Assembly: GCF_000026545.1 (NCBI RefSeq)
Contig: NC_011601.1
Reading direction: 5' to 3' (one strand)
Length of the DNA: 64,000 nt
Source of the DNA: Escherichia coli O127:H6 str. E2348/69
Lineage (GTDB): Bacteria > Pseudomonadota > Gammaproteobacteria > Enterobacterales > Enterobacteriaceae
Shown here: positions 38,282 through 40,094 of the stretch, piece after piece
How the letters are laid out: every line of letters begins with the position of its first letter
How positions within the stretch are numbered: the stretch's first letter is position 1
The notes under the pieces: generated by a model
Told to the model about the DNA's origin: nothing
The model's database searches: none
What the model saw: the letters and a program-made list of their open reading frames with translations, nothing else
Program-made: the position numbers and the translations under genes

Positions 38282-38297
38282 TGACAGGTGTTAGATT

Positions 38298-38395
<98 letters not shown>

Positions 38396-38426
38396 ATGAA
38401 CAGTGTGCATTTTGGCAATAAATATG

Positions 38427-38453
38427 AAACCAACTGTCATGTCGGTTTTTTTA
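38427..38453. repeat. Left copy of a 27-bp direct repeat AAACC(A/G)ACTGTCATGTCGGTTTTTTTA; it also forms a hairpin followed by T7 on the + strand
   Basis: 26 of 27 positions are identical to 40006-40032. The last 21 nt (38433-38453) are identical to 40012-40032. It could act as the ybbP terminator. Confidence 0.8.
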
Positions 38454-38455
38454 AA

Positions 38456-38480
38456 GGCCGAAGGTGGTAAACCTTCGGCC
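38456..38480 (-). terminator. Perfect GC-rich hairpin GGCCGAAGG-N7-CCTTCGGCC just 3' of the candidate toxin ORF
   Basis: 9-bp perfect stem (10 bp if the flanking A-T pair is included), 18 nt after the TAA of the 27-codon ORF on the minus strand. Only 3 U follow before the second hairpin (38427-38453). Confidence 0.5.
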
Positions 38481-38498
38481 TTAGCTACGTTTCCTCAG

Positions 38499-38582
38499 TT
38501 ATTCAATAAATTGACGGATCAGTTCTAGCAGCGCGATTAGCGCCTTAAGAACGATGAGAACTTTATCGAGAAAAGTTTTCAT
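38499..38582 (-). CDS. Candidate type I toxin: 27-aa hydrophobic peptide MKTFLDKVLIVLKALIALLELIRQFIE (DinQ/TisB-like)
   Basis: Hand-translated from ATG 38582 to TAA 38499. GGGAG SD lies 6 nt upstream. The peptide is predicted to be a single amphipathic helix. I recall DinQ as MIDKAIIVLGALIALLELIRFLLQLLN, which shares the ALIALLELIR core. The ORF is shorter than the ORF-track cutoff. Confidence 0.55.
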   Translation of the reverse strand: MKTFLDKVLIVLKALIALLELIRQFIE

Positions 38583-38654
38583 CCGTTGCTCCCTTAAGGG
38601 AGAAAGACAATCACAGCTTACCCTTACGTTGCCTGTAACTATGATTTTCTTCAT

Positions 38655-38670
38655 GTGCTAGATGAGGACT
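38655..38670. repeat. Left copy of a perfect 16-bp direct repeat TGCTAGATGAGGACTG (predicted sRNA target site in the peptide mRNA 5' UTR)
   Basis: Identical to 39943-39958. It lies 73-88 nt upstream of the peptide ATG on the opposite strand. Confidence 0.75.
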
Positions 38671-38865
38671 GCCTCTCTCCAAATTAGAGCACCAGAATCA
38701 GCACCACCTGTATCCTGACCAGGACTTAAAAGTACTTTTCCGCACTGCGGTAATCCCTTGAGGCAGTATCACTACTAGCGTCGGGATTGTATCGCCAACA
38801 TAGCTGTTGTGTAAGTTCACAGAGATATTGCAATTGCCTCCGGATAAGTAAGGGGAGATTGCACT

Positions 38866-39912
38866 ATGCAAATGCAGCATCTGATGGTTGGCTATCCTAA
38901 GTACTACCAAACGGCCGATTATGCGTTGAGGCTTTCAGTGATGGCTGATATAGCAACAATGAGAATGAAGGCTCTGCACTTCTGGGATAAACACGGTATT
39001 TCTGCAGCTTCTGAAGCCTTTGGCGTGTCCTGCCGCACGCTTTACTGGTGGCGTCAGTTACTGAACAAGGAAGGACCTGAGGGGCTAATCCCGCACAGTA
39101 AGGCACCTCTGGTGCGACGAAAAAAACACTGGCATCCCGATGTGCTGAAAGAGATTCGACGCCTCAGGACAGAGCTGCCGAACCTCGGTAAAGAGCAGAT
39201 TTTTGTTCGCCTGAAGCCCTGGTGCGAACAGCGCTATCTGGCCTGTCCGAGTGTTTCCACCATCGGCAGAATGATCGCTGCCGCACATGATAAAATGCGG
39301 ATGATACCTGTGCGTCTGGGATCGCGGGGGAAGGCACTGCTTGTCAAAAAGCGGTCTGCCAAACCCCGCAGGCCAAAGCACTACCGCCCGGTAAAGACAG
39401 GTGAGCTCATTGGGATGGACGCCATTGAGCTCAGAATGGGCGAACTGCGTCGCTATGTCATCACCATGATCGACGAATGCAGCAATTACGCGCTGGCGCT
39501 GGCTGTGCCGTCACTCAACAGTGATATCGTCAATCACTTCTTCAGCCGCGCAGCCCGGTTGTTCCCGGTCGGTATCAGCCAGATAATCACAGATAACGGA
39601 AAAGAGTTCCTGGGAAACTTCGACAAAACGCTGCAGGAAGCCGCTATCAAACACCTCTGGACCTATCCCTACACGCCAAAAATGAACGCTATCTGTGAAC
39701 GTTTTAACCGGACGTTAAGAGAGCAGTTTATTGAATTTAATGAGATTTTACTCTTTGAAGATCTGGCGCTATTTAACCAGAAGCTGGCGGAATATCTGGT
39801 GCTGTATAACAGCAAAAGACCCCACAAGGCGCTCGCACTAATGACGCCCGTGGAATATATTTTAAAAGAGAATAAAAATTGCAATATGTGGTGGACCCAT
39901 ACAGCTGTTTGA
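38866..39912 (+). CDS. DDE transposase/integrase-core (rve) protein with an N-terminal HTH; IS481-family-like single ORF
   Basis: 348 aa, with AGGGGAG SD 8 nt upstream. The N-terminal HTH is AFGVSCRTLYWWRQ. The catalytic-core pattern is GMDAIEL...ITDNGKEF...PKMNAICERFNRTLREQF (D, D, E with the typical spacing). Confidence 0.85.
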   Translation: MQMQHLMVGYPKYYQTADYALRLSVMADIATMRMKALHFWDKHGISAASEAFGVSCRTLYWWRQLLNKEGPEGLIPHSKAPLVRRKKHWHPDVLKEIRRLRTELPNLGKEQIFVRLKPWCEQRYLACPSVSTIGRMIAAAHDKMRMIPVRLGSRGKALLVKKRSAKPRRPKHYRPVKTGELIGMDAIELRMGELRRYVITMIDECSNYALALAVPSLNSDIVNHFFSRAARLFPVGISQIITDNGKEFLGNFDKTLQEAAIKHLWTYPYTPKMNAICERFNRTLREQFIEFNEILLFEDLALFNQKLAEYLVLYNSKRPHKALALMTPVEYILKENKNCNMWWTHTAV

Positions 39913-39937
39913 ATATGTAGGCATCCTGACTTATAAT
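39909..39937 (+). promoter_or_regulatory. Near-consensus sigma70 promoter TTGAAT-17 nt-TATAAT
   Basis: -35 at 39909-39914 (overlapping the transposase TGA stop), a 17-nt spacer, and a perfect -10 at 39932-39937. The predicted TSS is around 39944, at the start of the 16-nt repeat. Confidence 0.55.
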
Positions 39938-39943
39938 TCACTT

Positions 39944-40031
39944 GCTAGATGAGGACTGTTTCATTTCTGCCCGGAACCACCAAGTCTTGGGCGGAAAAAA
40001 TAAAAAAACCGACTGTCATGTCGGTTTTTTT
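39944..40031 (+). ncRNA. Candidate ~88-nt antitoxin sRNA whose 5' end (UGCUAGAUGAGGACUG) is complementary to the 5' UTR of the 27-codon ORF mRNA
   Basis: It is defined only by the upstream promoter, the 16-nt complementarity to 38655-38670, and the hairpin (AAAAAAACCGAC-TGTCAT-GTCGGTTTTTTT) with a T7 run at 40002-40031. I have no expression data. Confidence 0.4.
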
Positions 40032-40032
40032 A
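40006..40032. repeat. Right copy of the 27-bp direct repeat; a bidirectional hairpin terminator between the candidate sRNA and selU
   Basis: See 38427-38453. The A7/T7 arms flanking CCGAC/GTCGG give a U-run in both orientations. Confidence 0.8.
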
Positions 40033-40094
40033 TATCTGTATTCTGGTGCAACCATTCTGTTCTCACGACAATCGCCGTTTCAGAATACCGCCCA

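Follow-up and report, generated by a model that had tools for sequence, protein, structure and literature searches.

Two copies of an AgrB-type terminator as the probable source of 27-bp direct repeats between ybbP and selU in Escherichia coli

The closest described relatives of the DNA considered here belong to the DinQ/AgrB family of toxin-antitoxin (TA) systems of type I, which was described by Weel-Sneve et al. 2013 (PMC3567139) and Kristiansen et al. 2016 (PMC5066626) and is catalogued in T1TAdb (PMC8594479). In the dinQ/agrB system of Escherichia coli K-12 the start codon of dinQ lies at +195, and pairing of the two RNAs keeps the ribosome-binding site closed and triggers cleavage by RNase III (PMC5066626). 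Related genes, called dql (dinQ-like), have already been described on the chromosomes and plasmids of Enterobacteriaceae, sometimes alongside dinQ itself (Kristiansen et al. 2016, PMC5066626). The traits published for them are similar 5' untranslated regions (UTRs), signature residues, a sigma-70 promoter and a Rho-independent terminator (PMC5066626). In this work we examine a stretch of 64,000 nucleotides (the window) from E. coli O127:H6 str. E2348/69 (contig NC_011601.1), in which two 27-bp direct repeats lie between ybbP and selU, the latter now named mnmH. The window matches the E2348/69 genome with 100% identity. An earlier note on this DNA had taken them to bound a module of toxin, transposase and small RNA (sRNA) genes.

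We are highly confident that the repeats are two copies of one Rho-independent terminator inside a DinQ/AgrB-family (dql-type) type I TA cassette, with an unrelated insertion sequence (IS) of the IS481 family between them. The repeat is thus explained by known biology, and the displaced copy of the terminator is the only new detail.

The repeats and the cassette around them

The repeat, AAACC(A/G)ACTGTCATGTCGGTTTTTTTA (searched as the pattern AAACCRACTGTCATGTCGGTTTTTTTA), has exactly two matches in the 64-kb window, at 38427-38453 (copy 1, AAACCAACTGTCATGTCGGTTTTTTTA) and at 40006-40032 (copy 2, AAACCGACTGTCATGTCGGTTTTTTTA), both on the plus strand; across 100 dinucleotide-preserving shuffles there were 0 matches. 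The copies are identical at 26 of 27 positions, the sole difference being position 6 (A in copy 1, G in copy 2), and the distance from start to start is 1579 bp. Since the loop TGTCAT is not its own reverse complement, the 27-mers are true direct repeats. The pattern search and the shuffles therefore confirm the repeats as the earlier note had reported them. The same can be said of its value of 1813 bp for the gap between the stop codons of ybbP (38281) and selU/mnmH (40095), and of its proposal that genes for a toxin, a transposase and an sRNA lie between the repeats, all three of which are borne out. The RefSeq annotation, made by the Prokaryotic Genome Annotation Pipeline (PGAP), lists at the locus ybbP, on the minus strand a 27-aa peptide under the name 'damage-inducible type I toxin DinQ', an 'IS481 family transposase' and mnmH.

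Copy 2 is part of the antitoxin gene. An AgrB-like antitoxin sRNA of about 89 nt, at 39944-40032 on the plus strand, is indicated by an Rfam match, by collinearity with K-12 agrA/agrB and by its predicted fold. With the Rfam model RF02891 (AgrB), whose gathering score is 40, the stretch 39945-40033 (plus strand) gives 53.6 bits over model positions 1-84 of 84, and the terminator stem-loop of this match is copy 2. The sRNA promoter, TTGAAT-17-TATAAT (39909-39937, plus strand), agrees with the consensus at 10 of 12 positions and has the IS adjoining its -35 box; its position predicts a transcription start at about 39944. Copy 2 has a perfect stem, extending to 14 bp if an A/T extension is included, with a folding energy of about -13 kcal/mol on either strand. 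A terminator scan picks it up in either direction: both strands have T-rich tails, and on one of them there is a T7 tail. As a G+C stem-loop followed by a U-run it is a predicted intrinsic terminator in either direction, and with A and T runs on its flanks it can be expected to stop selU/mnmH transcription as well.

Copy 1 is an extra AgrB-type terminator hairpin that directly adjoins the terminator of the toxin mRNA. As plus-strand RNA it has an A.C mismatch and a T7 tail (-6.3 kcal/mol), and as minus-strand RNA a G.U wobble in an 8-bp stem with the tail CATATTTATT (-8.5 kcal/mol). The terminator scan reports it on the minus strand only, so that it has part of what makes an intrinsic terminator. 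The earlier description of each copy as a hairpin and T-run terminator holds fully for copy 2 and in part for copy 1, where the mismatch and the wobble detract from it.

The toxin gene lies between copy 1 and the IS. Its open reading frame (ORF), at 38499-38582 on the minus strand, encodes the 27-aa peptide MKTFLDKVLIVLKALIALLELIRQFIE, which comes from the list of ORFs and is the one that PGAP calls DinQ; a longer in-frame ORF of 51 aa reaches 38654. The 27-aa peptide passes the NCBIfam equivalog model NF041472 toxin_DinQ (40.9 bits, E = 1.8e-10, cut-off 30) and falls below the cut-off of the NCBIfam DqlB model (24.5 bits, cut-off 35). The G+C-rich hairpin AAGGCCGAAGG-N5-CCTTCGGCCTT (38454-38482, minus strand), an inverted repeat with a 12-bp stem on both strands, is the family-conserved terminator of the toxin mRNA and aligns with the K-12 dinQ terminator and with its Serratia and Pantoea homologues. 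The sequence that follows it, UUUAAAAAAA, is a poor U-tail. On the other side of the gene, the palindrome CUCCC-UUAA-GGGAG (CTCCCTTAAGGGAG; 38586-38605, minus strand) is an inverted repeat that can sequester the Shine-Dalgarno (SD) sequence. It aligns with K-12 CUCCAUCGCAUGGAG and is the counterpart of the closed SD stem-loop of K-12 dinQ (PMC5066626). The match between the two UTRs consists of this palindrome and of the collinear alignment. A candidate -10 for the toxin gene, TACAAT (38787-38792, minus strand), is suggested by the sequence about 198 nt upstream of the ATG. The cassette therefore has a predicted 5' UTR of about 190-200 nt, with an SD-sequestering stem-loop and collinear homology to dinQ, as is expected of a dql-family gene.

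A second direct repeat, this one of 22 bp, connects the toxin and antitoxin genes. Positions 38650-38671 match 39937-39958 at 20 of 22 positions, with a perfect 15-nt core (GCTAGATGAGGACTG), and as a consequence the 5' end of the sRNA is complementary to the 5' UTR of the toxin mRNA, where its target covers 38650-38680 (minus strand). The predicted duplex between the first 40 nt of the sRNA and the toxin UTR has an energy of -55.5 kcal/mol, compared with -26.3 +/- 3.5 for shuffles; the first 40 nt were used for this calculation, as RNAduplex runs of the full sRNA with the mRNA gave artefactual long-range structure. In T1TAdb (PMC8594479) the family is recognised by an sRNA gene that is divergent from the toxin gene, lies 5' of it without overlap and has 15 nt or more of complementarity to the UTR, and this organisation is found here. 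So are the family's two other hallmarks, a hydrophobic peptide homologous to DinQ and an sRNA that is of AgrB type in both sequence and structure. When the IS is left out, the cassette and K-12 dinQ-agrA align collinearly over a stretch that starts at the G+C hairpin and stops about 16 nt beyond the sRNA terminator, with about 70% identity over the aligned columns. The K-12 AgrA and AgrB terminators, AAAAAACCGAC-gcaaa-GTCGGTTTTTTT, have the stem of the 27-mer with another loop.

The way in which the cassette works we infer from the K-12 system, and this applies to the transcript ends, to toxicity, to regulation by the sRNA and to any role of copy 1. A toxin mRNA of about 330 nt would be transcribed on the minus strand from the candidate -10 at about 38787-38792, ending at the G+C hairpin (38454-38482) and copy 1, and would encode the 27-aa membrane peptide behind a long 5' UTR with its SD-sequestering hairpin. 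The sRNA of about 89 nt would be made divergently (plus strand, 39944-40032) from the near-consensus promoter, and about 24 nt at its 5' end would pair with the toxin 5' UTR at 38656-38680. Copy 2 would serve as the sRNA's own terminator and, on the other strand, could end selU transcription. Copy 1, in contrast, would be a duplicate lodged in the U-tail of the toxin mRNA terminator, acting at most as an accessory 3' hairpin and as a weak stop for read-through from ybbP.

Alleles of the ybbP-selU interval and the insertion sequence

In order to place the cassette in a population context, the breakpoints of the ybbP-selU interval were classified, on the right and the left sides, in 5426 complete E. 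coli genomes. About 1320 of these (about 24%) carry the cassette at this site. In K-12, O157 and most others homology is lost right at the stop codons of ybbP and selU; K-12 has rhsD-ybbC-ylbH-ybbD-ylbI-ylbG between the two genes, and neither hairpin nor any repetitive extragenic palindrome (REP) is found in its interval. This is the gene order that the earlier note had given for K-12, and its view of the site as a recombination hot spot is also upheld, as the interval is highly polymorphic and has several alternative alleles.

Empty sites locate the ends of the variable DNA. The empty site of ChlosBP-23-1 has an interval of 140 bp, which runs from ybbP through two REPs and ...catgaacagcgtgca|cagaatccccc... 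to the selU stop, and that of MS20677 is the same with extra REP copies (L006 340-560). Both alleles contain zero copies of the 27-mer. It follows from their junctions that the strain-variable segment is 38410-40080 and that both hairpins are internal to it: its boundaries are 38409/38410 and 40080/40081 (the right breakpoint class begins at query position 169, which is window position 40081), copy 1 begins 17 bp inside the left end, and copy 2 ends 48 bp inside the right end. No duplication is found at these true boundaries (38410, 40080). The segment is made up of the 570-bp TA cassette and 1101 bp of IS and target duplication. The earlier note had put all of the non-core DNA between the repeats, which is slightly off, since the variable segment takes in the repeats as well.

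To the left of the segment, at 38282-38409, is core intergenic DNA that follows ybbP and lies outside the accessory cassette, being common to both empty-site alleles. It holds a REP pair, or bacterial interspersed mosaic element (BIME), which ends ...catgaacagtgtgca and gives Rfam REP-derived matches to ES036 (40.3 bits, gathering score 37.6) and, in part, to naRNA4; REP copies of this stretch account for about 180,000 matches across E. coli genomes. The right end of the cassette, 40033-40080, is delimited by the alignment with K-12 and by the allele breakpoints, and its first 16 nt or so (TATATCTGTATTCTGG) are homologous to the sequence after the K-12 AgrA terminator.

The earlier note had proposed two checks on a mobile module: a search for empty sites that hold a single 27-mer, and a search for the module at other loci with the same repeat. 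Neither gave what a mobile module would lead one to expect. The empty sites exist, as described, with no copy at all. A query made of the left flank, one 27-mer and the right flank found no one-piece match among the 30 top rows, all of which were matches in two pieces about 630 bp apart; the 1320 matches of this query at 80% coverage or more are uninformative, as they join half-matches in cassette-bearing genomes. The cassette was found at no chromosomal site other than ybbP-selU. Its near-complete matches in the plasmid collection are confined to records of 1.2-4.9 Mb, which are taken to be mislabelled chromosomes, and the 27-mer has no match in viral contigs.

The IS itself is 1096 bp long (38808-39903, plus strand). 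Its ends are TGT...ACA, and its terminal inverted repeats, which include ATATTGCAATT, are imperfect. Its limits are given by the matches to other IS copies, which stop exactly at 38808 and 39903, and by comparison with IS-less alleles. The transposase ORF (38866-39912, plus strand) comes from the ORF list and carries the PGAP name 'IS481 family transposase'; it scores 221.6 bits (E = 1.5e-65) against the NCBIfam IS481 model, just below the cut-off of 224, and contains the Pfam domains rve, rve_3 and HTH. The IS481 family is characterised by a DDE transposase, by terminal inverted repeats, by a short duplication of the target and by a length of about 1-1.3 kb, and the element has all of these. 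The target-site duplication is the 5-bp GCTGT, at 38803-38807 on the left and 39904-39908 on the right, as is evident from the IS-less allele of FY10. In FY10 and many other genomes the ybbP-mnmH interval is 714 bp, i.e. that of the window minus 1101 bp. Many copies of the IS that are 100% identical occur on E. coli chromosomes and plasmids, including 4 places in E2348/69, and at the ybbP-selU site it is found in 5 genomes only. The IS landed between the candidate toxin -10 and the sRNA -35, in the E2348/69 lineage only, as a later and separate event. All of the IS-free alleles examined (8/8) have both repeats and are nearly identical, with A in copy 1 and G in copy 2. As these alleles keep both 27-mers and the IS has a GCTGT duplication of its own, the IS is unrelated to the 27-bp repeats, and the idea of toxin, transposase and sRNA as one module has to be given up.

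Two side observations concern this IS. The transposase ORF has no stop codon inside the element (end 39903), and its TGA is supplied by the flank, inside the sRNA -35 box TTGAAT. The insertion site thus determines how the transposase ends at its C-terminus, which may explain why PGAP names vary between 'IS481 family transposase' and 'integrase core domain-containing protein'. At its left end (38786-38815, minus strand) the IS provides -35-like hexamers before TACAAT, namely TACACA with a 16-nt spacer and CTTACA with an 18-nt spacer. The insertion moved the native upstream DNA 1.1 kb away and may have given the toxin gene a hybrid promoter.

The interval shows further variation. Right breakpoint classes begin at window positions 40081, 40093 and 40102, and left ones at about 38283-38287, 38396 and 38409; further alleles beyond rhsD and DinQ/AgrB are implied, e.g. 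by a class from query position 190 that makes up about 10% of sampled rows. A recurrent allele, found in EC31 and HR12-1, has a 108-bp deletion (the equivalent of 38560-38667) between the imperfect repeats GATGAGAAC and GATGAGGAC. Lost with it are the start codon of the toxin gene, its SD sequence and the target of the sRNA, while the sRNA gene and both hairpins are kept and PGAP annotates no dinQ; judged by what is lost, the allele resembles a knock-out of the toxin that arose naturally. When metagenomes were scanned for the hairpin, 32 contigs were obtained, and in those with two matches the spacing is either about 478 bp (476-478) or about 370 bp (370-373). The longer spacing corresponds to the intact cassette and the shorter one matches the deletion allele, to which metagenome contigs (e.g. 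L152, L155-L157, L160, L164) were assigned by hairpin spacing alone. In the metagenome contig OBCQ01005340.1 (L139 157-179), which begins past copy 1, copy 2 has the A variant that is typical of copy 1, through either a parallel G-to-A change or gene conversion between the copies. Finally, the species-representative assembly labelled 'Shigella flexneri SFBU1023' (CP182556.1; L097, L122) has both the dinQ locus and the ybbP cassette, with many small indels when set against all other copies, e.g. in copy 1 and the sRNA. These look more like assembly errors than true divergence, and the genome was left out of inference.

The repeats and the displaced copy explained

The origin of copy 1 can be approached by comparison with other loci of the family. 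In K-12, E. ruysiae, Escherichia sp. E1V33, several Serratia and a Pantoea plasmid, homology begins ...AATRTTAAAGG just before the G+C hairpin, and no terminator copy is found beside this hairpin in the aligned stretch of these loci. A scan of genome contigs with the toxin-coding 19-mer GGATCAGTTCYAGCAGCGC returned at least 120 loci; most of these are chance matches in unrelated phyla, and about 10 Enterobacterales loci were usable. In one of the Serratia loci (L104), an unrelated short hairpin, CCGAC...GTCGG, stands a few bases upstream. In the ybbP cassette, copy 1 lies directly against the G+C hairpin (...GTCGGTTTTTTT-AAAGGCC...), which on the minus strand puts it within the U-rich tail that the toxin terminator has in other loci. 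The loop TGTCAT is shared by both copies and is absent from the other family terminators examined, and this marks copy 1 as a duplicate of the ybbP cassette's own sRNA terminator.

The constraint on the duplicate can be gauged from a diverged relative. Three metagenome contigs (L140, L148, L149) that are about 95% identical to the window have the same cassette at the same site with both copies, and their copy 1 reads AAACCGACTGTCATGCCGGTTT(T)GTT. Between E. coli and this lineage, which is about 5% diverged, the 27 nt of copy 1 show 3-4 differences. If the 17 nt to the left are added (44 nt), there are 8 differences, compared with 16 in the rest of the cassette (479 nt; Fisher p = 3.5e-4), and 0 in copy 2, the G+C hairpin and the sRNA target. 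The ancestral stem-loop of copy 1 was probably identical to copy 2, one different transition having since been fixed in each lineage. To us copy 1 appears to be a weakly constrained duplicate, nearly neutral, which could act at most as an accessory 3' hairpin or insulator. As side observations, the cassette core differs by 3.3% between E. coli and the divergent Escherichia lineage, compared with about 5% in the surrounding genes, which reflects either strong constraint on the whole non-coding cassette or a recent exchange between lineages; and the divergent lineage has lost most of the REP pair after ybbP.

Several other explanations of the repeats have been considered. Site-specific integration of a 1.6-kb mobile module, leaving the repeats as attL/attR junctions, was suggested by long direct repeats near both ends of strain-variable DNA, at a hot spot with several alternative alleles. 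Under an att model, as under a target-duplication model, the empty site should hold a single copy and the inserted DNA should have the repeats at its ends, and the model fails on both counts, as the empty sites lack the 27-mer and the indel ends 17 bp and 48 bp outside the repeats; the att-type junctions of the earlier note are thereby contradicted. Nor is there a tyrosine or serine recombinase among the cassette ORFs. The sole enzyme is the DDE transposase of the IS, which has its own ends and duplication, and the IS-less 570-bp cassette has no recombinase gene and yet keeps both repeats. The restriction of the cassette to one chromosomal site, the want of a match to the 27-mer in viral contigs and the fact that copy 2 is part of an sRNA gene point the same way, and we give this origin next to no credence. 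Insertion of the IS or of the whole cassette might instead have duplicated its target, or a terminator within it: insertions commonly do so, and a terminator between convergent genes is a plausible target. However, the 27-mers neither flank the ends of the IS, which has its own 5-bp GCTGT, nor are they absent without it, since the IS-less alleles have both. Had insertion of the cassette made the duplication, the empty site would retain a single copy and the repeats would coincide exactly with the ends of the insert, and neither is seen. In addition, the hairpin stem is that of the AgrA/AgrB terminators at an unrelated locus, so the sequence came with the cassette and not from the ybbP-selU target. 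A duplication at insertion is therefore scarcely more credible than att junctions. The earlier note was right in substance to speak of a duplicated terminator, but wrong to place the event at insertion, because both copies are internal and both are present in the lineage diverged by about 5%. It had also named a finding that would count against its own proposal, i.e. hairpins that are the native ybbP and selU terminators in all strains, with unrelated DNA between them. Copy 1 does follow ybbP, copy 2 does read as a terminator on the selU strand, and in cassette strains both hairpins probably stop those transcripts. Nonetheless, both are missing from the K-12 rhsD and empty-site alleles, where ybbP and selU are intact, and a hairpin that is not there without the cassette is not native to either gene. 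Copy 2 moreover lies inside the Rfam AgrB match, and copy 1 makes a poor plus-strand hairpin, with its A.C mismatch and a T-run that is broken in the divergent lineage. The chance that native terminators explain the repeats is just as slight as that of a duplication at insertion.

Other questions concern copy 1 by itself. It could be a functional second 3' hairpin of the toxin mRNA, recruited from the antitoxin terminator and kept by selection to back up termination or to block 3' exonucleases. The change of G to A at 38432 in E. coli and that of GTCGG to GCCGG in the divergent lineage both give G.U on the minus-strand RNA and A.C on the plus-strand RNA, copy 1 is detected as a terminator on the minus strand only, and the G+C hairpin alone has the poor U-tail UUUAAAAAAA. 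Against this, two concordant transitions are weak evidence, to be expected about 1 time in 4 by chance; copy 1 and its left flank diverge by 11-24%, as would a sequence under little or no constraint, compared with 3% in the cassette core and 0% in copy 2; and no such copy exists in the aligned stretch of other family members. We hold a selected second hairpin to be possible, and on balance doubtful. A little more doubtful still is the broader idea that copy 1 was co-opted either in this way or as an insulator against convergent ybbP transcription, with the stem substitutions as the trace of selection. If it were true, one terminator sequence would serve both partners of a type I TA pair. It might also be that cassettes once stood head to tail here, with copy 1 as all that is left of an upstream Agr-like sRNA gene and not as a copy made locally from copy 2. 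Tandem units or cassettes do occur in the family, as with K-12 agrA/agrB and a Salmonella IncFII plasmid that has two dqlB genes and three Agr-like units, and a head-to-tail array would put a terminator beside the G+C hairpin of the next cassette, which is where copy 1 is found. The sequence upstream of copy 1, however, has no significant similarity to the sRNA body, and the TGTCAT loop that the two copies share, unlike other family terminators, argues for a recent copy made within the cassette. We consider an array remnant unlikely, to much the same degree as co-option.

Our reading of the repeats as two copies of one terminator in a TA cassette has points that weigh against it, and these are best stated together. 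The toxin promoter, the 3' end of the toxin mRNA and the expression of the sRNA in E2348/69 are predictions, and in the IS-less allele a consensus scan finds no -35/-10 pair for the toxin gene. There is no LexA box (CTG-N10-CAG) in the cassette on either strand, where the K-12 locus has CTGGATAATCATACAG. The census drew on sampled rows of BLAST tables, and a rare single-hairpin allele could have escaped it. For copy 1, a trace of its arrival was sought in a conserved left-end motif, AAATATTAAAGG, which it would have split (AAATAT...TAAAGG); this was rejected, as the divergent lineage reads CAATCTG there. The sequence upstream of copy 1 scores no better against the sRNA body than did 401 of 1000 shuffles. 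A local duplication and the remnant of a tandem array are both candidate origins.

These results have some use for the annotation of E. coli genomes, and little import beyond that. A false lead, the supposed att-bounded mobile 'toxin-transposase-sRNA module', is removed. The alleles at the ybbP-selU hot spot can be sorted into at least four kinds that are unrelated to each other: the empty site; the empty site with additional REPs; the DinQ/AgrB cassette, which may be intact, carry the 108-bp deletion or carry the IS; and the rhsD cluster. The 'damage-inducible' in the PGAP name of the paralogue rests on homology only. With no LexA box in the cassette the label is unsupported for the ybbP-selU gene, and the RefSeq name, inherited by homology, is probably wrong as regards its regulation. 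A second, non-SOS DinQ/AgrB locus in about a quarter of E. coli, complete with natural knock-out and IS-disrupted alleles, could provide ready-made material for work on type I TA systems.

Comparison with known systems

We found no literature that names the ybbP-selU site of a DinQ/AgrB system. The nearest known counterpart of the cassette is K-12 dinQ-agrAB, located between gor and arsR (PMC3567139, PMC5066626). Both have a 27-aa hydrophobic toxin with an ALIALLELIR core, a G+C hairpin terminator (followed by TACGTTTCC) and a long 5' UTR with an SD-sequestering hairpin. In both, moreover, the sRNA is divergent and non-overlapping, its 5' end recurs as a direct repeat in the UTR, to which it is therefore complementary, and its terminator stem is AAAAAACCGAC/GTCGGTTTTTTT. 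In contrast to K-12, the cassette is at another site (ybbP-selU, not gor-arsR), has one sRNA gene and not two, and starts its toxin with ATG and not GTG. It also lacks a LexA box, has the loop TGTCAT instead of GCAAA, and carries the extra terminator copy 3' of the toxin gene. Control by LexA as part of the SOS response, which the ybbP-selU cassette does not show, is a feature of dinQ itself and not of all dql genes. As the K-12-type dinQ-agrAB locus is present in 5422 of the 5426 genomes, the ybbP cassette is an additional paralogue. PGAP and Rfam pick out its two genes by automatic annotation.

Known IS481-family elements measure about 1.1 kb, have the ends TGT...ACA, duplicate a short target and encode a DDE (rve) transposase that has a helix-turn-helix at its N-terminus. 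By comparison the element at 38808-39903 is ordinary, except that the stop codon of its transposase lies 7-9 bp past the IS end. The likeness of the repeats to the att sites of phages and islands is superficial and consists in there being direct repeats near the ends of accessory DNA; here, unlike at att sites, the empty site is without a copy, the repeats are off the boundaries and there is no site-specific recombinase.

The direct repeats of K-12 agrA/agrB are a closer parallel, since they carry the same terminator hairpin and were made by duplication inside the cassette. There and in a Salmonella plasmid, however, whole sRNA units are in tandem on the sRNA side, whereas at ybbP-selU the terminator alone (27 to about 40 nt) is duplicated, and it sits on the far side of the toxin gene. 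The plasmid, the IncFII plasmid NZ_CP022492.1 of Salmonella Saintpaul (L165 900-1250), has two dqlB genes about 925 bp apart from start to start, with three tandem Agr-like sRNA/terminator units between them, the second and third of which have divergent 5' ends. Judging from the sequences of such loci, duplicated sRNA/terminator units are common in the DinQ/AgrB family.

Serratia, a Pantoea plasmid and 1669 plasmid records also have related cassettes; the closest relatives on plasmids reach only about 70-73% identity, over the half that holds the toxin and UTR. As for the dql genes, it could not be confirmed that the ybbP-selU locus is among the 14 published sequences, and its peptide matches the DinQ model and not that of DqlB. 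In its make-up, the ybbP-selU cassette fits the published description of dql genes, including their co-occurrence with dinQ in one strain.

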